Positions 4,219 to 12,742 of a stretch of DNA of 64,000 nucleotides are shown piece by piece. A program made the position numbers and the translations under genes. The notes under the pieces were generated by a model. That model was not told the DNA's origin and did no database searches. It saw nothing but the letters and a program-made list of their open reading frames with translations. The number at the start of each line of letters is the position of its first letter. The first letter of the stretch is position 1. Source of the stretch: a virus; the IMG/VR virus record IMGVR_UViG_3300024581_003792, positions 1 to 64,000 of that record; one strand, 5' to 3'.

Positions 4219-5190
4219 ATGAATCAAGTACCATATCAATTAACTGAAAATTCACTCACAATCTTTTGGGAAGGCAAGCCTTATACATTGCGTAAGGATC
4301 ATGTCAATTTCCAACTCGCTAAGAAAGCTATTCTTGATGCGAGATATGATGATCTAGGTGATTTGCTAGATATTACCAAGGCAATTGAGAACTTTGTCGA
4401 AGGTGACATTGAAGTCAAGGACGAAGTAGTTTACTACAAAGGTCATCGCTTGCATGGAGTTGTCGTTGACAAATTGCTCGAAATGCTTCGTGCAGGAATG
4501 AAGGATTCTGCTCCTCTCACCAACTTTATTACTCGCTTGCAAGCTAATCCTAGCGCAAACTCTGTTAACGAATTGTATTCTTTTATGAGTTACAAGTCTC
4601 TCGCCAATACTCCCGAAGGTAAAGTTTTGGGGTACAAAGGTGTACAATCCGATTATTGGAGTACAACAGGTAATGCAGATACAATTGTATTGCAGGGTAA
4701 AACCAATGAGCGTCATCAAATCCTTAATGAAGTCGGGGCAACCATCGAAGTTGCTCGCAGATGCGTAGATGACAACAAGGACAATCATTGTTCTTTCGGT
4801 CTTCATGTCGGCTCATTTGATTATGCCGATAGTTGGGCAGGAGAAAATGGTCGCTTGCTTTTAGTAGAGTTTGATCCTGCTGATGCAGTATCTGTACCAA
4901 CTGATTGCGACTTTCAAAAACTTAGGGTTTCCAAATACAAGGTGATCTCTGACATTAGTGACACTAGAAAAGAGCTAAATAAGCCTGTCTACGAAGCTAA
5001 TAAGCCTATCTATGGATCAAATGAAGATGAAGATTTCGTAGATGACGAGGATTACGATGAGGATTACGATGATGAAGAGAACGATTATGTAGATTTAGTT
5101 GACTCTCATTATGAAGCTAATCCAAAAGATTTATTGGCGCATGATGACGATGATGAGGATTACGATATGGATCAAACAGATAGAGACTAA
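4219..5190 (+). CDS. rIIB: rIIB-like protein with acidic C-terminal tail
   Basis: Motifs LQANPS...ELYSF, GYKGV, CSFGLHVG, PADAVSVPTD...KLRVSKYKV; adjacent to rIIA. Confidence 0.85.
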   Translation: MNQVPYQLTENSLTIFWEGKPYTLRKDHVNFQLAKKAILDARYDDLGDLLDITKAIENFVEGDIEVKDEVVYYKGHRLHGVVVDKLLEMLRAGMKDSAPLTNFITRLQANPSANSVNELYSFMSYKSLANTPEGKVLGYKGVQSDYWSTTGNADTIVLQGKTNERHQILNEVGATIEVARRCVDDNKDNHCSFGLHVGSFDYADSWAGENGRLLLVEFDPADAVSVPTDCDFQKLRVSKYKVISDISDTRKELNKPVYEANKPIYGSNEDEDFVDDEDYDEDYDDEENDYVDLVDSHYEANPKDLLAHDDDDEDYDMDQTDRD

Positions 5191-5423
5191 TGGAATACAA
5201 TATTGAAAAAAGAATTATTGATGTTGCCATTGAATTGAGAGATGCAAGCAATATTTCCGCTAAAAAGATTCAAGAGTTTCAAGAAAAAAATCCAAGTCAA
5301 GAAGAAATGGAATCAGAGATGCCCAAAATCTTAGAGTCCTCACAAGAGAAAGCATCTAAGTTATTCCAATTATTAGATGAATACGAATTCATGAATGGGG
5401 TTTCTAAAAAAATTAATGAATAG
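5190..5423 (+). CDS. hypothetical protein
   Basis: TAATG coupling with rIIB. Confidence 0.6.
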   Translation: MEYNIEKRIIDVAIELRDASNISAKKIQEFQEKNPSQEEMESEMPKILESSQEKASKLFQLLDEYEFMNGVSKKINE

Positions 5424-5616
5424 ACATCGGGTCAAAAAGTTTATGCGTGATCACATTGCTAGTATCAGAGCAATCACCCTAGAAGATTTAGAGAAAGAAT
5501 CGGGGCTAAATAATATTGATCATGAAGATAATAATATTGACGATGGATCATCTATAATATATAAAATTAAGACTAATAACGATAATAATAAAGATACTAA
5601 TAACAATAAACAATAA
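5416..5616 (+). CDS. hypothetical protein (Asn-rich tail)
   Basis: ORF overlapping the upstream stop; low complexity. Confidence 0.4.
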   Translation: MNRHRVKKFMRDHIASIRAITLEDLEKESGLNNIDHEDNNIDDGSSIIYKIKTNNDNNKDTNNNKQ

Positions 5617-6262
5617 TTAATTATAGTAAAATATTAGTTTTGTAAAAATATAATAAAATTTAAAGGTATTGTGGCGAGGTTATTTGTTTCCCTTGGTTAG
5701 TTTTCATCACCTGTTTCGTAATCACATAAAAGCGAAACATCTTTATAATTTCACACGCTCTCTCATATAATTCCGTTGATAATTCCATTAATCAACATTA
5801 CCATACATATACAGAGAGTAAATAAACCTTATAATAGACTAATATACAAAATTTAAGGGTAAATTATAAAATAATGATGAAAATGTGGTGTGGCGCACTT
5901 CTATCTTTAAAAAATCTTAAAATTTAATATAAAAACAACAATCAAGATGGCGAAATCAAACTTAATAATAAAAAATAAAAAAATATTAACTCAATTTTTA
6001 TCTAATTTAATATGTTATTTTAAAAAAATGCTAAAAAATAATAAACAAAACAAAGTTATAGCCCCAAAAAACAAGAGAAATAAATATGGTTTTCCTGAAT
6101 TATAGATTAATATTTTATTTTAATAAATTTTAAATACAATAGTTAATAATAAATTATAAAAAATTTTAAAAGTGGAAACAATAATATTAATAATAATTTT
6201 TGGAATGATATTAGTTTTTAAATAGCCCCCGACTTAATAATAAAAGATAATAAATTTTAAAT

Positions 6263-6604
6263 ATGCTTTATAATTATAAAATAAAAAAAGTTTTAAAAGT
6301 TTTGGATGGAGACACAATAGATGTGGAGATTGATCTTGGCTTTGATGTATATGTAAAGCGTAGAGTTAGGTTTTATGGTATCAATGCGCCCGAAACAAGG
6401 ACTCGTGACCTTGAGGAGAAGGCGAGGGGCAAAGCATCCAAGGCATTTCTGAGTGATTTGATCGCAAATAACAAAGAAGACATCCTGCTTCATAGTTTGG
6501 ACATCGGCAAATATGGAAGAGTAATAGGCGAAATATATATAGAAGGAAAGAATGTAAACAAGTTATTAGTATCAGAAGGATATGCTATCAGCGCCGAATA
6601 TTAA
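6263..6604 (+). CDS. thermonuclease (SNase-like) family nuclease
   Basis: VLDGDTI, RVRFYGINAPE, GKYGRVIG, VNKLLVSEGYA. Confidence 0.85.
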   Translation: MLYNYKIKKVLKVLDGDTIDVEIDLGFDVYVKRRVRFYGINAPETRTRDLEEKARGKASKAFLSDLIANNKEDILLHSLDIGKYGRVIGEIYIEGKNVNKLLVSEGYAISAEY

Positions 6605-6736
6605 TAATAAATTATAAAAAATAATAAACTCAATACTTAATAATAATTTAAAATATTTTTTAAAGTTTTGGTGCTATTTAATATATTCTAGTATTTTTTA
6701 ATTGCTTTTGGCGTAATATAGGTTATTGTAGTATGC

Positions 6737-6940
6737 ATGGACGAGAGCGTAAAATTCGTGGAGGAACACATCGAAGAGAGTTTCGGGGCAATAATGGAGG
6801 AGTTTTTGATTGAGAATCTTTATTGGATCGAGCAGGGCGACCATGCTAGGGCGGTAGCAGAAATGTATATGCTAGAGGATGGGGCGCATAATCGAAACCT
6901 TGTTTGTTTGTTTCCTCCGTTTTATCCGCTTGACAAATAA
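6737..6940 (+). CDS. hypothetical protein
   Basis: ORF only. Confidence 0.5.
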   Translation: MDESVKFVEEHIEESFGAIMEEFLIENLYWIEQGDHARAVAEMYMLEDGAHNRNLVCLFPPFYPLDK

Positions 6941-6964
6941 TAAACAATATATATATTAATTGAC

Positions 6965-7258
6965 ATGAGCCTATCAAAAGACATCAACGAAAGACTAGAC
7001 GAAATCTTAGCGATCCGCAAGGAACTCAAACGAATGGATACTGATTTATCAGAGGATCAAATGCTAGATACTATCCACGATAATAAACAAATAAATAAAC
7101 AACAAGCAATATCTATAGTAGAAGAAATGATAGATAGAGTTAAATTTGATTTAAATAAAATAACAAATAATGGTAAAAATGTAAAAGGTATATTTACAAA
7201 TAACTATTATGTTAATGATTTAATGCAGGATAAACAAATAATAAAAGAACTTGAATAG
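6965..7258 (+). CDS. hypothetical protein
   Basis: TTGACA at 6930, 35 nt before the ATG. Confidence 0.6.
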   Translation: MSLSKDINERLDEILAIRKELKRMDTDLSEDQMLDTIHDNKQINKQQAISIVEEMIDRVKFDLNKITNNGKNVKGIFTNNYYVNDLMQDKQIIKELE

Positions 7259-7292
7259 CCCCGAAGTATTAATAATAAATAATAATAAAATA

Positions 7293-7487
7293 TTAAAGCG
7301 GGGGCTTAGTATCTGATTTAATTTTGTTTAATAAATCTTTTCTTTCTTGACGACCCATACCCTTATAGATATGATTTGCTAATTCTTTAATACGAAATAA
7401 TCTCTTTTCTGGAGTACCATTAACGAAATAAAGAATCATAGAACCTAAAAGACTACGAACCAAATAATTAATAATTTTATCTCTCAT
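7293..7487 (-). CDS. hypothetical protein
   Basis: ORF preceded by GTGTA (complement 7497-7501) 9 nt upstream, as in late genes. Confidence 0.5.
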   Translation of the reverse strand: MRDKIINYLVRSLLGSMILYFVNGTPEKRLFRIKELANHIYKGMGRQERKDLLNKIKSDTKPPL

Positions 7488-7570
7488 ACTGAAATGTACA
7501 CTATGCCCCGAACTTTTAATATTAAATTATATTTTATTTTAAAGATTTGTGGTTTTTTATATTTTAGGGG

Positions 7571-7599
7571 TTGACAAAGTATATTTTATTGATTATAGT
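7571..7599 (+). promoter_or_regulatory. sigma70-type promoter
   Basis: TTGACA-17-TATAGT. Confidence 0.75.
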
Positions 7600-7636
7600 G
7601 GTCTTATCTTAATCACACAAACAGGAGGAAAAAATC

Positions 7637-7834
7637 ATGGCTAATATAGCAAAATGCGCAAGAGCAACAGAAGTAATGAACAAAGTAAAAGGGGGCAACC
7701 CTTTCGTTTTCAATTCTCGCTTTATCGGGTACAATGAGAAAGTCGAGGGCATTGTCGCACAACAACGAGAAGCGGATCGCAGGTTGAAGGAGATTCAAAC
7801 CCAACGCTTAATTCGTGCAAAGGGGGTAGCGTAA
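7637..7834 (+). CDS. hypothetical basic protein
   Basis: AGGAGG Shine-Dalgarno and upstream promoter. Confidence 0.7.
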   Translation: MANIAKCARATEVMNKVKGGNPFVFNSRFIGYNEKVEGIVAQQREADRRLKEIQTQRLIRAKGVA

Positions 7835-8088
7835 TGGATGCATCAATAAAACCAATTAATGATAAGGTTAGTATGTTTGCAACTGATGAAGAACTATATG
7901 AAAAATTAACTAAAGAAGAATTAATGTTAATTAAATTAGTTAAATTAGAAGAGTTTGCTGATGATTTATATCGTTCTACTCAGAGTAATTATCATGCAGA
8001 ATTATTTCCTGCTGATAAAAGTTGGTTTAAAATAAAAGAATTATTAAGAGAATGCAGAAAAATCAATAAAAGTAAAATTAATAGTTGA
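7834..8088 (+). CDS. hypothetical protein
   Basis: TAATG coupling. Confidence 0.55.
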   Translation: MDASIKPINDKVSMFATDEELYEKLTKEELMLIKLVKLEEFADDLYRSTQSNYHAELFPADKSWFKIKELLRECRKINKSKINS

Positions 8089-8113
8089 CAAATAACCAAA
8101 TATAGAGTAATAT
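8085..8113 (+). promoter_or_regulatory. sigma70-type promoter upstream of the candidate ncRNA
   Basis: TTGACA-17-TAATAT. Confidence 0.6.
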
Positions 8114-8182
8114 ACTATAAATAACAATTGAGAAACAAACTCAAGTAAATAAAATAATCGATCTTTTACATTTTAACACTTT

Positions 8183-8392
8183 GGATGCTCTCGACGGAGA
8201 CATCCTGTGGGTGACCGAATAAGCCTGTCGTGAGCGGGCTAAGGTATGCAAATCCCTGTGGTGGGGTTGGTAGAGTCCAATCGGATGAGCCAAATGACTA
8301 ATACCAAGTCTAGTTTGTAGTTGGAAGTAGGTACACCATTGAACTGATGTTCACGCCGAAAACATGAGGGTATACAGTAATCCCTCCCCACA
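8183..8392 (+). ncRNA. candidate structured non-coding RNA, family unassigned
   Basis: GC-rich island with no credible ORF between a promoter and a terminator; nested stems GGATG/CATCC, TGTGGG/CCCACA, AGCCTG/CGGGCT (GTGA tetraloop), TGGTG/CACCA, TTGGTA/TACCAA, TGAAC/GTTCA, GAGGG/CCCTC. Confidence 0.6.
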
Positions 8393-8419
8393 CTAATTTT
8401 CTCTCATCCCCCCTCCTTG

Positions 8420-8457
8420 AACCCCTTTCGTTTATGTCTTAGCGAAAGGGGTTTTTT
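8420..8457 (+). terminator. intrinsic terminator
   Basis: AACCCCTTTCG...CGAAAGGGGTT followed by a T-run. Confidence 0.8.
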
Positions 8458-8494
8458 GTTTGACAATCCACCCTAATCCTGGCATACTAAAATC

Positions 8495-8749
8495 ATGAAA
8501 ACATTAAAAGACATATTATCAAATTACGGATACATTAACTCAGCTCAACTCGCAGAGATCAACGAGCACTTTCCACACATGAGGGTAGTAATCAAATGGG
8601 GTGGATTACCTCGTGATCGCGTTCCTGTTCATCAAGCAGTAAAACTCATCAACCATATTGAATCAAAAAAAATCGACTACTGCAGAGAAGTATTCCTTAC
8701 GGGCAAAGACTGCGAAAACTTAAGAGTAGCCCTTCATATTGCCAATTAG
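8495..8749 (+). CDS. hypothetical protein
   Basis: TTGACA(8460)-17-CATACT-6-ATG. Confidence 0.7.
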   Translation: MKTLKDILSNYGYINSAQLAEINEHFPHMRVVIKWGGLPRDRVPVHQAVKLINHIESKKIDYCREVFLTGKDCENLRVALHIAN

Positions 8750-8766
8750 TACCGCCAAGTACTACA

Positions 8767-8797
8767 GCCTCGTCCTCAAGTGGGGGCGGGGCATTTT
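8767..8797 (+). terminator. intrinsic terminator
   Basis: GCCTCGTCCTC-AAGTG-GGGGCGGGGC then ATTTT. Confidence 0.6.
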
Positions 8798-8809
8798 ACT
8801 TCACAAATT

Positions 8810-8881
8810 ATGAATACAATTATGCTCATCAATCTATTACTCGTAGTAATCTTTGCAGTTATTCTTTGCGCGCGTTCCTGA
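8810..8881 (+). CDS. putative 23-aa membrane peptide
   Basis: MNTIMLINLLLVVIFAVILCARS. Confidence 0.3.
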   Translation: MNTIMLINLLLVVIFAVILCARS

Positions 8882-9031
8882 GGCGCCGTCTTTTCTCACG
8901 CACCCCAAATATACAACACCACTCCACAAATATACATAGGCTAAATATAATACTACTACATAATAAATAAATACTAAATAAATAATAAACACTAAAAAAT
9001 TATATAATTTAAAATTAAAAAACAAATTGTA

Positions 9032-9098
9032 TAAAGTGTTGATTATTAGTGGTTTATGGCGGCCTGGCCCGCATAAGTGCTTGTTAGTTAACTGTTTA
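9032..9098. repeat. 67-bp dyad-palindrome-dyad element, copy 1
   Basis: taaagtgttgattattagtggttta|tggcggcctggcccgca|taagtgcttgttagttaactgttta. Confidence 0.85.
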
Positions 9099-9128
9099 CA
9101 ACAAAGTGAAAGTTTATTCATTTTTTTC

Positions 9129-9157
9129 TTGTGCTTTTAGCGTTTATCTGACATATT
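9129..9157 (+). promoter_or_regulatory. element-linked leaderless promoter
   Basis: TTGTGC-17-CATATT-6-ATG. Confidence 0.6.
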
Positions 9158-9163
9158 GTTTGT

Positions 9164-9577
9164 ATGATCTTAAGAAACCAACACGACCCAAGATACACGA
9201 TTAAAAAGAATCGTCCCGTTTATGTTTACAAGAATCTGCACAAAGATTGTTGGAGCGTCAAGCAACATAACTTAGTTAAAGCTCACATCCCAAAAGATCA
9301 AGCTATTGGCTTATGGGATTGCTATTTTCATGTTGACATGAAAGGTAGAGAAAAAGTCCTTAAGGAAAAGCGTAAAAATGTTCATGCTTATGTCAAGGGC
9401 TACCTTCAAGATGCCGAAAATGTATCTCGCAACCCCGCAGTTATCACCAAAGAGGTCGAGGTAACATACAATCCTTACAAGTATGAAACTTTTGTTGACA
9501 AGAAGGATGAAAGTTTTGTATACTATGCAGACGAAGTATTATTAACACACAACAAAGTAACCGCTTATATATCATGA
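9164..9577 (+). CDS. conserved phage hypothetical protein
   Basis: VYKNLHKDCWSV, GREKVLKEKRKNVHAYVKG and VTYNPYK resemble a widespread phage family. Confidence 0.75.
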   Translation: MILRNQHDPRYTIKKNRPVYVYKNLHKDCWSVKQHNLVKAHIPKDQAIGLWDCYFHVDMKGREKVLKEKRKNVHAYVKGYLQDAENVSRNPAVITKEVEVTYNPYKYETFVDKKDESFVYYADEVLLTHNKVTAYIS

Positions 9578-9747
9578 AACAATTATTGATTAAAATTCCT
9601 GTATCGCAATCCATCCAAGAAGTTATGGATTACATTCAGTACAGCGAGATGGAGGGCGAAGTAGATCCGACAGATTCGTGGTACAGCACATACGAATTAT
9701 TAAAAGAATTACAACAAAAAGTATTAGATGAGGAGGATATGTTATGA
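9574..9747 (+). CDS. small hypothetical protein (57 aa)
   Basis: ATGA overlaps at both ends. Confidence 0.6.
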   Translation: MKQLLIKIPVSQSIQEVMDYIQYSEMEGEVDPTDSWYSTYELLKELQQKVLDEEDML

Positions 9748-9947
9748 AAGAAGAATTAAAAGGAATCAAACACGCTATCGACGGATTATCAGATGAAATG
9801 TTAGAGCATAGACGCTATGCAAACATGGACGACCTTGTCAAGGTAATGAAAAATATCAACGATAACCTTGTATCTATCAGCTTTGACCTAAAAGAATTAG
9901 TTGAAGCAAAAAAGTTTCAAAATGAGCTGACAACAGCACTTAGATAG
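9744..9947 (+). CDS. hypothetical protein
   Basis: GGAGG Shine-Dalgarno and ATGA overlap. Confidence 0.65.
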   Translation: MKEELKGIKHAIDGLSDEMLEHRRYANMDDLVKVMKNINDNLVSISFDLKELVEAKKFQNELTTALR

Positions 9948-9952
9948 TTATC

Positions 9953-10019
9953 TAAGTTATTGAATGTCAACGGCTTAGGCGAGCCAGGCTCGCGCAAGTC
10001 ATTGATACTTAAGGGTTTA
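9953..10019. repeat. 67-bp element, copy 2
   Basis: taagttattgaatgtcaacggctta|ggcgagccaggctcgcg|caagtcattgatacttaagggttta. Confidence 0.9.
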
Positions 10020-10050
10020 AAACAAAATGCGTTTATTTTTATTTTTTTTC

Positions 10051-10079
10051 TTGCGTTACTATTAGAATTCGTCTAGTGT
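10051..10079 (+). promoter_or_regulatory. element-linked leaderless promoter
   Basis: TTGCGT-17-TAGTGT-6-ATG. Confidence 0.6.
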
Positions 10080-10085
10080 GTTTAT

Positions 10086-10253
10086 ATGCAAGAAACAATA
10101 GATGTAACACCAAAATGGTCAGCAATCGTTCCTTTCATGATCGGAGTGCTGAAGAACCCAAAAGCAGATCCTGAATCTAGAAAGTTTGTTGAAGTAGAAC
10201 TTATGAGATTAGCAAAGATTGCAGACCAAGCAAAGGAAAGGGCAAAACAATGA
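10086..10253 (+). CDS. small hypothetical protein (55 aa)
   Basis: MQETIDVTPKWSAIVP...; leaderless start; ATGA overlap with the next gene. Confidence 0.65.
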   Translation: MQETIDVTPKWSAIVPFMIGVLKNPKADPESRKFVEVELMRLAKIADQAKERAKQ

Positions 10254-10474
10254 CATTATCAGAATCAATTATGGATATAGTAAGAGGCAACCTCGCATGG
10301 TCAGATCCCATGTCAACAGTTTGCCTCGATCAACATGAGCGTCACCCCGAAAAGTTTCCAAAGGGTAGCTCGTTTCAAACTGAAGATGAATCTTTAGCGG
10401 ATATCATTAGAGACTTGACAGTATTACAAGATGAGCGTAGAATAGAATCATCTTTTCAATCAGCACAACTATAA
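10250..10474 (+). CDS. hypothetical protein
   Basis: ORF in operon. Confidence 0.6.
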   Translation: MTLSESIMDIVRGNLAWSDPMSTVCLDQHERHPEKFPKGSSFQTEDESLADIIRDLTVLQDERRIESSFQSAQL

Positions 10475-10488
10475 CACAAGGAAAAATC

Positions 10489-10704
10489 ATGACAGCAGTA
10501 TTAGACACACCCGAACAAATCGAAATGTTTCGCTACAAAACTCTTCTCAGAGGTTTAAGGCTTGAGACGCAAGGACTACAAATGAGTCGAGGCAGATCTT
10601 GCTATTCTATCATCAAACAAGAGTTTGGTCTCAAAGGTAGCAAGCAAAAAGTTTTCGATCAATTTAAACTAATGTTAGAACAAGTAGACGAAAGGGCACT
10701 ATAA
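10489..10704 (+). CDS. hypothetical protein
   Basis: AAGGA Shine-Dalgarno. Confidence 0.7.
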   Translation: MTAVLDTPEQIEMFRYKTLLRGLRLETQGLQMSRGRSCYSIIKQEFGLKGSKQKVFDQFKLMLEQVDERAL

Positions 10705-10910
10705 TGACAAAAGCAGAAATTAAAAACAGAGTAGAAAGACAATGGGAAGGTAACATGAATATCTTTGAGATATATGATGAGCTTCGCGACAACCATACCG
10801 CTGAAGAACAAGAACAACTCTTGACTCATGCTTACAACTTTTTCTCTATTCAAGATGCAAAAAACTTCATAAAAGAGCTTGCGTATCATTTCAATATCCA
10901 TATAGTATAA
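10704..10910 (+). CDS. hypothetical protein
   Basis: TAATG coupling. Confidence 0.65.
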   Translation: MTKAEIKNRVERQWEGNMNIFEIYDELRDNHTAEEQEQLLTHAYNFFSIQDAKNFIKELAYHFNIHIV

Positions 10911-10913
10911 CAT

Positions 10914-11171
10914 ATGAACAACTACATAGAAGCAACCTGCATCGGCAGTCCACTAGGTTTACCTGAATACAACGAATCCACCGAACAATGGGAATTGTTC
11001 TTTGAAGAAAACCACGACGAGTGGAATCCATATTTTGAAAGAGATATTCTTTCTGTAAGTTTCGAGTCAGTTGAAGAAGTCACTGACGCTTACAATCACT
11101 ACAACCAAAATCCCGTAAAGGAGGACAAAGAAAATGAAGAAGTTACTGAGCAAGTTCTTGCGTTGGTTTAA
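10914..11171 (+). CDS. acidic hypothetical protein
   Basis: ORF, very D/E-rich. Confidence 0.65.
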   Translation: MNNYIEATCIGSPLGLPEYNESTEQWELFFEENHDEWNPYFERDILSVSFESVEEVTDAYNHYNQNPVKEDKENEEVTEQVLALV

Positions 11172-11367
11172 CCCTGTCTATCAAGTAGTCTATACGACTG
11201 CAGAAGGCAAAACACAAATGTATACTATATCCAAACCAAAACATAAAAACGAGTTTGGCAATAGCAAAGAAGGTTTGGCAGTTGCGGGCTTTAGAGCTCA
11301 TTGTTACAACCGAGGCGACATCCGTTCATTTCGCTACGATAGAATCACATCCTTAATCAAAATATAA
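11134..11367 (+). CDS. small WYL/Sm-like domain protein
   Basis: AAGGAGG Shine-Dalgarno; C-terminal AHCYNRGDIRSFRYDRI resembles the WYL R-x-F-R-x-D-R-I motif. Confidence 0.55.
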   Translation: MKKLLSKFLRWFNPVYQVVYTTAEGKTQMYTISKPKHKNEFGNSKEGLAVAGFRAHCYNRGDIRSFRYDRITSLIKI

Positions 11368-11380
11368 TCAAAATATAATC

Positions 11381-11530
11381 ATGGAATCATTAAAAGCAGC
11401 AATCAGAGAGTTGGGTTATCAATTAGCAGTTCGCGAGATATACGGCGAGAATACGCCGGAGTATTTCCAAAAGAAACGGTCTCACGAGAGGCTCCTCAAC
11501 AAATTGTATCGATTAGAAAAAAAAGTCTAG
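11381..11530 (+). CDS. small hypothetical protein (49 aa)
   Basis: MESLKAAIRELGYQLAV...; ends just before a terminator. Confidence 0.5.
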   Translation: MESLKAAIRELGYQLAVREIYGENTPEYFQKKRSHERLLNKLYRLEKKV

Positions 11531-11544
11531 TAAATACTTTGCCC

Positions 11545-11583
11545 GCCCCCTTCTCTGCTAACGCGGGGAGGGGGTTTTTTTTT
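11545..11583 (+). terminator. intrinsic terminator
   Basis: GCCCCCTTCTCTGC-TAAC-GCGGGGAGGGGGT plus T-run. Confidence 0.8.
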
Positions 11584-11599
11584 GCGCCAAGTTAATCCC

Positions 11600-11666
11600 T
11601 AAGTTACTGTTATTCAACGACTTATGCGGGCCAGGCCCGCGCAAAGCCCTGAGAGCCAACAACTTA
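11600..11666. repeat. 67-bp element, copy 3
   Basis: taagttactgttattcaacgactta|tgcgggccaggcccgcg|caaagccctgagagccaacaactta. Confidence 0.9.
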
Positions 11667-11695
11667 TGAAAAATGCATTTTTATTCATTTTTTTC

Positions 11696-11724
11696 TTGTG
11701 TTAATTAAAAAATTAGTTTAATGT
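11696..11724 (+). promoter_or_regulatory. element-linked leaderless promoter
   Basis: TTGTGT-17-TAATGT-6-ATG. Confidence 0.6.
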
Positions 11725-11730
11725 GTTTAT

Positions 11731-11862
11731 ATGACAGCGAGAGAGATTAAGATCAGAAAAACCATTCTTTTTACTAAGTCTCGCCCGCACAAAGTTAAGA
11801 CTAAAATTCTAGATCGAAAAAAGAAGCACAAATTAAAATTAAGTATTGACAACCAATCCTAA
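11731..11862 (+). CDS. small very basic protein (43 aa)
   Basis: MTAREIKIRKTILFTKSRPHKVKTKILDRKKKHKLKLSIDNQS; leaderless start. Confidence 0.55.
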   Translation: MTAREIKIRKTILFTKSRPHKVKTKILDRKKKHKLKLSIDNQS

Positions 11863-11881
11863 ATCTATATTATAAAAAACT

Positions 11882-12742
11882 ATGACAACTACTACAAACA
11901 ACAGAATTAACTCACCAAAAATTAACCTTAGCATCTGCGGAGGCGAGCATGATGTAACCACCTTGACCCATGTCAAGTCAGTTGCTACCCCTGATACTAC
12001 TTACAGGGAAAAACTTAGCAAAAAAGGTAATCGTATCGTTTCCCATCAACCCATCCCTCATGGCGACATGATTGACTTGTTTCGTCAAGAACTTAGTCGT
12101 CGTCAGTTTCATGTTCAAAATGAGTGCCATAATCTCGCCAAAGAAGGAGCTCGCTACTTTGGTTTGTTTCAAGTCACGCATGGCTTAAGGAAAGCTGAGA
12201 CTGAGCGAAGCACTATTATTGGATTACGCAACGCTCACGACAAAGCATTTTCCGCAGGTATTTGTGCAGGTGATGCCCCATTCGTTTGCGATAACCTTAT
12301 CTTTTCAAATGAGATTGTGGTTGGTCGCAAGCACACAGGCGAGCTTGATCATCTACTCAAGGAAATTAGTGGTAAGATTACCGAAGCTCTCGGCAAACTT
12401 TTCACCATGTGGAACACTCAAGACAATAGAGTTAACGCTTACAAAGAGAGGGAGATTACTAATGCTGAGGCTAATGACCTGATCATTAAAGCCTATCAAG
12501 CTAAAGCGATTAACTTGCAACGCATCCCCGATGTTCTCAACCAATGGGAATCTAGCGATCATCCTGACTTTTGGGATCGTAATGTTAATTCATTGTATAA
12601 CGCTTTCACCGAAGTTTACAAGGGCAACCTGTTCTTAAATTCTAGCCCTTCAACTTTGATGAATAGGTCTTATGGTCTTCATTCAGTGCTTGATCCTTTT
12701 GTAGGTATTAACAAGGAAGAGCCTGAAGTCATAGAGGTTTAA
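11882..12742 (+). CDS. DUF932-like phage/plasmid protein
   Basis: HQPIPH, IIGLRNAHDK, FVCDNLIF, SLYNAFTE; TTGACA at 11846. Confidence 0.7.
   Translation: MTTTTNNRINSPKINLSICGGEHDVTTLTHVKSVATPDTTYREKLSKKGNRIVSHQPIPHGDMIDLFRQELSRRQFHVQNECHNLAKEGARYFGLFQVTHGLRKAETERSTIIGLRNAHDKAFSAGICAGDAPFVCDNLIFSNEIVVGRKHTGELDHLLKEISGKITEALGKLFTMWNTQDNRVNAYKEREITNAEANDLIIKAYQAKAINLQRIPDVLNQWESSDHPDFWDRNVNSLYNAFTEVYKGNLFLNSSPSTLMNRSYGLHSVLDPFVGINKEEPEVIEV

Follow-up and report, generated by a model that had tools for sequence, protein, structure and literature searches.

The manA RNA (Rfam RF01745) was described in 2010 as a riboswitch candidate because nucleotides in its junctions are conserved and because it lies in 5′ untranslated regions (UTRs); its reported carriers were T4-like cyanophages and two gamma-proteobacteria, in addition to sequences from marine metagenomes (Weinberg et al. 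2010, Genome Biol 11:R31, PMC2864571). Rfam labels the family Cis-reg. In the S-CREM1 phage, a 215-nt manA scoring 100.6 bits lies near wcaG RNA (RF01761) and other cyanophage cis-regulatory motifs (PMC9964418). Cryo-electron microscopy (cryo-EM) of five manA RNAs has since revealed decamers built on pentamers, an octamer, and an icosahedral-like cage of 60 subunits, in which subunits are joined by kissing loops (L5-L7′ and L8-L9′) and by an L1-L1′ contact (bioRxiv July 2026, 10.64898/2026.07.01.735769). Here, we analyzed the first 64,000 nt (hereafter the window) of the 213,830-b virus record IMGVR_UViG_3300024581_003792, in which an earlier reading made from the sequence alone (the original prediction) had proposed an independently transcribed, multi-stem RNA of ~210 nt and of no recognisable class at 8183-8392. 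The element proved to be a manA RNA, and the explanation that we favor for the locus as a whole, with reasonable confidence, is a manA sub-variant that is encoded as a free-standing gene and may act as a self-assembling particle.

A search with the Rfam covariance models returned RF01745 at 8183-8396 (+) with 88.1 bits (E 3.8e-21), covering model positions 1-192 of 192 and scoring 33 bits higher than the curated gathering score of 55.2 bits. This was the sole Rfam family above threshold across the 64-kb window, and a genome-wide search of the 213,830-b record found one manA copy only. We therefore consider 8183-8396 (+) almost certainly a true member of the manA family. Given the strength of this match, the novelty of the RNA class, which was the central claim of the original prediction, is removed, such a match being the outcome that the prediction had itself named as refuting; the phrase "no recognisable class" was wrong. 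With that claim gone, the interest of the RNA rests on an orphan family and the new structural data available for it. Neither a tRNA nor a tmRNA was detected in the window by ARAGORN, in line with the earlier observation that such signatures were missing, and no ribozyme family reached an E-value of 1 in a relaxed Rfam scan of positions 5000-12000 (7 kb). Two sub-threshold matches in that relaxed scan, to RybB on the terminator hairpin (32.6 bits, cut-off 40) and to an L10 leader (E 0.92), were treated as chance.

Homologs were gathered from IMG/VR by four motif scans, and 106 were aligned. They form two groups: a large main group, which matches the manA copies of isolate T4-like cyanophages (P-SSM2, P-SSM4, P-HM1/2, and MED4-213; 37 records), and a window-type subgroup of 29 distinct sequences. 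All 18 window-type relatives tested with RF01745 scored above the cut-off (71-93 bits). The wcaG, glnA, and abiF families gave no match in an Rfam scan of the window and 18 related loci; wcaG RNA and the window RNA are alike in being structured RNAs of the early or accessory region of marine phages. No match was found by blastn of the RNA with its flanks, and of one relative (L010), against 50,697 isolate phage genomes, a search from which very near records were possibly omitted. The window-type sub-variant is carried on large uncultured marine phage contigs, not on isolate T4-like cyanophages.

For the pairing test, a covariance model was built from the subgroup and 36 matches were re-aligned to it. 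Across these viral-metagenome homologs, the Rfam-derived structure left 94.5% of cells paired, with compensatory changes in 38 of the 50 pairs; none of 500 shuffles equaled the real structure, and slid controls reached 40-57%. The single-sequence fold was less telling (z = -1.81, with 9 of 200 shuffles folding equally well), and the case for the structure is made by homolog comparison, fold energy alone being weak evidence. Two of the checks proposed with the original prediction, an Rfam scan and covariation across viral-metagenome homologs, gave the RF01745 match and these compensatory pairs (38/50), and its claim of a structured non-coding phage RNA is borne out. The core is predicted to fold as helices P1-P9 around a P4-P5-P6-P7 four-way junction, with the following features:

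8183-8205 (+): P1, the 5′ hairpin, GGAUG/CAUCC plus UCUC/GAGA, with a bulged C8188 and loop L1 GACG at 8193-8196.
8207-8391 (+): P2, the closing stem around the conserved core, GUGGG (8207-8211) with CCCAC (8387-8391).
8212-8247 (+): P3 domain, with P3a AC/GU (8214-15/8244-45) and P3b GCCUGU/GCGGGC (8223-28/8234-39), loop CGUGA.
8212-8247 (+): conserved junction strands of the P3 domain, GACCGAAUAA and UAAGGU, with invariant columns in the alignments.
8248-8318 (+): P4-P5-P6-P7 four-way junction, predicted from covariation (helices 84-100% paired, 15 of 17 pairs compensatory).
8248-53/8313-18 (+): P4, GCAAAU/GUUUGU.
8255-57/8264-66 (+): P5, CCU/GGG, with loop L5 GUGGUG at 8258-63.
8267-71/8289-93 (+): P6, long, UUGGU/GCCAA, with an inner stem UCC/GGA (8276-78/8283-85).
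8295-98/8308-12 (+): P7, U,GAC/GUC,A, with loop L7 containing ACCA at 8303-06.
8319-8365 (+): P8 domain, remodelled, with an outer stem of only UG/CA (8322-23/8363-64) and five consensus pairs deleted.
8324-39 (+): conserved, subgroup-specific P8 insert, GAAGUAGGUACACCAU, which contains AAGUAGG.
8340-43/8350-53 (+): P8 inner hairpin, UGAA/UUCA, with loop L8 CUGAUG, followed by CGCC and GAAAA.
8366-8386 (+): P9 hairpin, GAGGG/CCCUC, with an 11-nt loop L9, UAUACAGUAAU.

All nine pairs of P1 showed compensatory changes in the homologs, P2 and P9 were each paired in 100% of cells (three of five pairs compensatory in both), and P3a and P3b were likewise 100% paired. Seven of the nine stems drawn in the original prediction are helices of the manA family. 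Among these, the 5′ hairpin (8183-8205), the stem 8206-11/8387-92, the hairpin 8222-40, TGAAC/GTTCA (8340-53), and GAGGG/CCCTC (8366-86) are Rfam consensus helices with covariation support, although the loop of 8222-40, taken for a GNRA cap, is a CGUGA pentaloop and not a strict GNRA tetraloop. The two central stems did not survive the comparison: TGGTG(8259-63)/CACCA(8334-38) was paired in 58% of homolog cells and TTGGTA(8267-72)/TACCAA(8302-07) in 65%, both no better than shuffles. The central pairings backed by covariation are CCU/GGG (8255-57/8264-66), UUGGU/GCCAA (8267-71/8289-93), GAC/GUC (8296-98/8308-10), and GCAAAU/GUUUGU (8248-53/8313-18), which put a four-way junction in place of those two stems. 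A P4-P5-P6-P7 four-way junction has been described for most manA members (10.64898/2026.07.01.735769), and it is present in the window at 8248-8318.

The window RNA thus resembles RF01745 in its P1-P9 helices, its four-way junction, and its marine phage setting, as well as in the strands GUGAC.GAAUAA and UAAGGU, the GUGGUG and ACCA loops, and GGUAUACAGUAAUCC. The first four of these motifs, together with the loop UAyACAGnAAU, make up the core unpaired motifs, all of which are in the window and invariant or nearly so across the 106 sequences. The differences lie at the periphery. P6 is long in the window (27 nt, 8267-8293, with an inner stem whose C8277/G8284 pair becomes U/A in relatives), whereas the main cyanophage group has a short tetraloop hairpin. 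In P8, two outer pairs and the conserved AAGUAGG insert replace the longer stem of the family consensus; the outer pair 8323/8363 covaries (CG 20, GC 11, UA 4, and AU 1 among the 36 homologs), and both AAGUAGG and CUGAUG are invariant in the 29 subgroup sequences. We accordingly place the window RNA in a known orphan family as a new member, which represents a sub-variant distinguished by its long P6 and remodelled P8.

The departure of P8 from the family consensus (five pairs deleted and a 13-nt insert), along with the absence of the subgroup from the isolate phage genomes searched, is what could speak for an RNA of a new class, such as a ribozyme or decoy, with a misleading Rfam match. However, the RF01745 match is full-length and 33 bits over the cut-off, all helices other than P8 and the junction motifs are common to the family and covary, and the relaxed scan of 7 kb gave no ribozyme family with an E-value as low as 1. 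We give a new class next to no chance, and as far as the sequence and structure evidence reaches, it is already refuted.

The window-type manA is, in our judgement, quite probably a stand-alone RNA transcription unit with its own promoter and terminator, as comparison across loci suggests. The RNA stands out from its surroundings as the GC-rich island of the original prediction (G+C = 0.47 at 8200-8399 versus 0.22-0.24 in the flanking spacers), and the absence of a credible open reading frame (ORF) also held: 8089-8494 contains no + strand ORF of at least 30 amino acids (a.a.) and two spurious - strand ORFs. The features of the unit and of its downstream neighbor are as follows:

8085-8113 (+): putative host-type sigma-70 promoter, -35 TTGACA (8085-8090), 17-nt spacer, -10 TAATAT (8108-8113), 10 of 12 matches.
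8120-8182 (+): predicted 5′ leader of ~63 nt from a putative start, with hairpin TTGAG (8128-8132)/CTCAA (8140-8144).
Within 8120-8182 (+): conserved box in the leader, just 5′ of the P1 hairpin, GATCTTTTACATTTTAACACTTT.
8393-8418 (+): pyrimidine-rich linker from the RNA core to the terminator, by direct reading, including CCUCCUU.
8419-8460 (+): intrinsic terminator, a 14-pair stem (8419-8454; core fold ~-17 kcal/mol) followed by a T-run.
8460-8749 (+): next transcription unit, outside the RNA, TTGACA (8460-65), 17 nt, CATACT (8483-88), 6 nt, ATG at 8495.

Both flanking signals named in the original prediction, TTGACA-17-TAATAT at 8085-8113 and a strong terminator 3′ of the RNA (the 14-pair stem at 8419-8454 and its T-run), were confirmed, and its claim of independent transcription gains support from their recurrence (promoter in 26/26 loci, terminator in 23/25). 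The sequence TTGAC[AT]-17-TAnnnT occurs 36-223 nt 5′ of P1 in every window-type locus with enough flank, at 66-73 nt in the compact loci, the window among them. Transcription is predicted to start near 8120. The leader hairpin TTGAG...CTCAA is kept in 22 of 26 relatives, and two loci (L003 and L239) carry the compensatory TTAAG/CTTAA. The own-promoter case is one of conservation across loci. On the 3′ side, a hairpin and T-run follow the RNA at 23 of the 25 distinct window-type loci; the stems are unrelated in sequence between loci, and fold energies range from -10 to -29 kcal/mol. The early host-type promoter at 8085-8113 would thus yield a non-coding transcript of ~340 nt, comprising the ~63-nt leader and the manA core and ending at 8419-8460.

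The layout beyond the terminator is also recurrent. A promoter-like site lies within ~30 nt of the terminator in 20 of 25 relatives, mostly 7-12 nt 3′ of it, and in 18 of 27 loci an ATG that lacks a ribosome-binding site is found at a distance of exactly 35 nt, counted from where the -35 box starts. In the window, the ATG at 8495 lacks a Shine-Dalgarno sequence and has a leaderless layout; with a promoter of its own and a leaderless start, the next ORF would not depend on read-through. The RNA does not occupy a 5′ UTR position before a protein gene, given that a terminator, a new promoter, and a leaderless ATG intervene here and in most window-type loci. Such a position is contextual and lies outside the RF01745 model, and its absence is no bar to family membership.

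The main group is organized differently. A -10 box lies 24-32 nt 5′ of GUGAC in 75 of its 86 loci (a -10-like box 18-38 nt 5′ in 83 of 86), and the transcript should therefore begin at P1, directly after a promoter at fixed distance, in contrast to the ~63-nt leader before P1 in the window. On the 3′ side, where the window has a terminator and a fresh promoter, cyanophage main-group copies mostly run into a gene: by counts anchored on motifs, an ORF follows within 60 nt with no terminator in 41 of the 86 loci, a terminator-like hairpin comes first in 25, a tRNA gene is next in 6, and an ORF lies further away in 14. We did note that 19 main-group loci (e.g., L130, L171, L223, and L215) carry a conserved irregular hairpin (AGACCUAAGAUGCAAC...GGGCAGAUGGUCU) and a T-run after manA, ahead of genes that include a transaldolase-like ORF with the N-terminus MKIFLDTADT, and that in the six further loci the tRNA gene directly follows manA. 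A cis-regulatory reading is reasonable for many cyanophage copies and fits the window type poorly.

Applied to the window, that reading would make the RNA a cis-acting riboswitch or attenuator, the core of which senses a metabolite or factor and sets the choice between a stop at 8419-8460 and read-through into the ORF at 8495-8749. We consider this unlikely. It can draw on the 2010 candidate rating (conserved junction nucleotides and 5′ UTR position; PMC2864571), on the 41 of 86 main-group loci that run directly into an ORF, on the terminator lying on the same strand as the next gene, and on the 84-a.a. ORF being the commonest downstream neighbor. The terminator, however, does not overlap the closing stem P2 (the linker between them is 14-112 nt long, with a median of ~25 in relatives, and variable in sequence), no conserved alternative pairing was found, and in most loci the terminator hairpin reaches -17 to -29 kcal/mol and is followed by 6-8 U, which is very strong. 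Between terminator and ORF lies a conserved promoter, and the leaderless-offset ATG lacks a Shine-Dalgarno sequence, so that a read-through copy should be poorly translated. The downstream gene also differs in several relatives while the terminator-promoter layout is unchanged, and no manA ligand was reported in the literature found, 16 years after the family was described.

A further alternative, which we hold to be less probable still, is that the RNA is the 3′-terminal element of an upstream operon (promoter 7571-7599, ORFs 7637-7834 and 7834-8088) and is made mainly by read-through, as a stabilising 3′ structure or an excised piece, with the 8085 promoter minor or non-functional. There is no convincing terminator between 7704 and 8419, a contig from an RNA library spans 8042-8211 over the putative promoter, and a processing site could be marked by UUUGGA, which is invariant where P1 starts (L003 and L246 have a further UUUGG upstream, at their extra modules). 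The promoter is nonetheless conserved in 26/26 loci and the leader hairpin in 22/26, and an operon origin is compatible with a stand-alone unit, as both routes can feed the same RNA.

Assembled contigs from metatranscriptome libraries provide a weak hint of expression: contig X17 covers 8153-8359 with one mismatch, and X18 covers the manA of a relative at 8203-8410. Several points weigh against a stand-alone unit. These contigs show presence, not starts, ends, or levels, and DNA carry-over is possible; contig X15 bridges 8042-8211, across the putative promoter. On a single sequence, a promoter-like match is not significant in AT-rich DNA such as this (10 such sites versus 6.1 +/- 2.5 in shuffles). 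With no terminator between the upstream ORFs (7637-8088) and the RNA, the latter may also form the 3′ end of the upstream operon transcript, and a terminator after an aptamer could equally be the look of a terminating riboswitch, with read-through adding downstream expression. The uncovered parts, flat depths, and small word shares of contigs X15-X20 are uninformative on ends, levels, or habitat.

The working form of the window RNA may well be a self-assembled, trans-acting RNA particle made early in infection, although we would stop just short of calling this probable. Many copies would join through L5 GUGGUG-L7 ACCA, L8 CUG-L9 CAG, and L1-L1 contacts, and the particle would hold or organise some host or phage component. 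The assigned contact loops are all present in the window (L5 GUGGUG, L7 ACCA, L8 CUG, L9 CAG, and L1 GACG). In the main group, changes in L8 and L9 always go together (CUG/CAG in 79 sequences, AUG/CAU in 10, and mixed in none), while L5 and L7 are near-invariant, with one lineage (L244) carrying the compensatory UGGC/GCCA when loops are read by motif. Across the family, an L1 other than GACG is nearly always a palindrome (UGAUCA, GAUC, UUGCAA, UAAUUA, AGCU, UUAUAA, or AUAU). Among 14 distinct non-GACG loops, 12 hold a palindrome of at least 4 nt versus 5.3 expected from shuffles (P = 2e-4), and eight one of at least 6 nt versus 1.1 expected; the test is significant only for these distinct loops, and not over all P1 loops with the dominant GACG tetraloops counted. 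Such palindromes are the pattern expected of a self-pairing loop, and together with the L8/L9 covariation, they suggest selection on the intermolecular contacts.

The palindromic kissing loop of the HIV-1 dimerisation site is a self-pairing device of this kind, and it is alike with L1 of manA in being a palindromic apical loop, as an analogy only. Large, free-standing structured non-coding RNAs that form homo-oligomers also include ROOL, GOLLD, and OLE of phages and bacteria; manA is likewise free-standing and multimer-forming, but it is far shorter (~200 nt) and unrelated in sequence, and this comparison too is an analogy. The closest comparison is with the cryo-EM assemblies of manA_A0F1 and manA_67AA, the constructs of which are main-group sequences. 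The window RNA shares their family, core fold, and assigned contact loops, and it differs in the peripheral helices P6 and P8; those particles were all seen in vitro. Of the roles floated in the original prediction, a scaffold fits the closed homo-oligomers of manA in the cryo-EM preprint, and nothing here points to a ribozyme or decoy.

A number of observations count against a particle as the working form. The oligomers were obtained in vitro with 10 mM Mg and RNA at mg/mL concentrations, from other members only (main-group and Photobacterium types), and which quaternary contacts form is determined by peripheral helices, P6 among them (10.64898/2026.07.01.735769). For the window type, with its altered P6 and P8, assembly and stoichiometry are thus predictions from the loop sequences only, and our mapping of helix names derives from the figure labels and construct sequences of the preprint, not from coordinates. 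The L8/L9 change may be a single evolutionary event, the L5/L7 covariation is that of one lineage, and L5-L7 pairing was no better than shuffles on the model-fitted alignment, where the loop columns are insertions and out of register. Covariation, moreover, cannot separate an intramolecular pseudoknot from an intermolecular contact.

Features that are new here are the remodelled peripheral helices, the stand-alone gene layout, and a carrier outside the T4-like cyanophages. A fuller proposal, which we advance only tentatively and regard as rather doubtful, is that the window-type manA is an early free-standing gene of a non-T4-like, possibly non-cyanobacterial phage, the product of which forms a closed particle (a ring or cage) sequestering or organising a component. 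If this were true, the 16-year-old riboswitch candidate label would be wrong for the window-type branch, and the particle would be the first compartment in nature to be built from RNA alone and to have a biological role. With one manA branch laid out as a stand-alone early gene, there is a handle on the puzzle of the RNA-only rings and the 60-subunit cage, and whether manA is a trans-acting assembly or a cis regulator becomes directly testable on a defined 214-nt or 340-nt RNA.

The carrier itself bears on this proposal. The 213,830-b record encodes rIIA and rIIB, which suggested a T4-like cyanophage. We rejected this identity given the absence of psbA and hli, the lack of PHROG matches, and the distant terminase. 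Neither psbA/psbD nor hli was found in the virus record, which is rated complete, nine large ORFs (six in the structural region) had no PHROG match, and the large terminase is at most 28% identical to that of any isolate. A tblastn search with a 452-a.a. structural ORF against isolate phage genomes gave no match, and a Gp23 Pfam search was also without a match, its positive control being likewise silent. The carrier genome therefore falls outside the known carriers of manA (T4-like cyanophages and marine gamma-proteobacteria), and, unlike the T4-like cyanophages, it has structural ORFs with no PHROG match and lacks psbA and hli. DNA sequencing runs holding at least half of the sampled words of the stretch were from seawater or marine metagenomes of seven studies, with two runs (one study) stating no organism. 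The carrier is an uncultured 214-kb marine phage lineage that is not T4-like.

The ORF that follows the RNA (8495-8749, 84 a.a.) is the commonest downstream neighbor in the relatives; in several of them, another gene follows a terminator and promoter laid out in this way. Of the 103 homologs of the ORF, almost all lack a name or are called "hypothetical", and the functional names given to two of them look like mis-annotations. The ORF had no Pfam or PHROG match, nor any match by tblastn against isolate phage genomes. The CCUCCUU of the linker before the terminator is identical in sequence to the anti-Shine-Dalgarno tail of 16S rRNA, and C-rich tracts of the CCCUCC type occur in the linker of several relatives too.

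Upstream of the RNA, two additional promoter-like elements were considered and not adopted. The late-type box TATAAATA (8116-8123), directly 3′ of the -10 box, is only partially conserved (YATAAAT in ~6 of 26 relatives) and may reflect a second promoter type or chance in AT-rich DNA; conservation of TTGAGA-16-TAAAAT (8128-8155) across relatives is partial as well. The longer promoter-P1 distances in some loci (L003, L246, L241, L186, L252, L235, L010, L251, L250, and L257) are due to extra hairpin modules of 60-150 nt inserted between the conserved leader and manA. These modules match no Rfam family, and L003 and L246 also carry a copy of the CACUUUUGG motif 5′ of the insert; the site looks like a cassette site for small structured RNAs.

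Elsewhere in the window, positions 11528-11582 gave a sub-threshold match to NsiR1, a cyanobacterial nitrogen-stress small RNA (29 bits versus a cut-off of 39, E 0.013). A second G+C island, at 6300-6500, is explained by an ORF at 6263-6604 encoding a 113-a.a. protein with a staphylococcal-nuclease-like domain (PF00565; PHROG 452, endonuclease).

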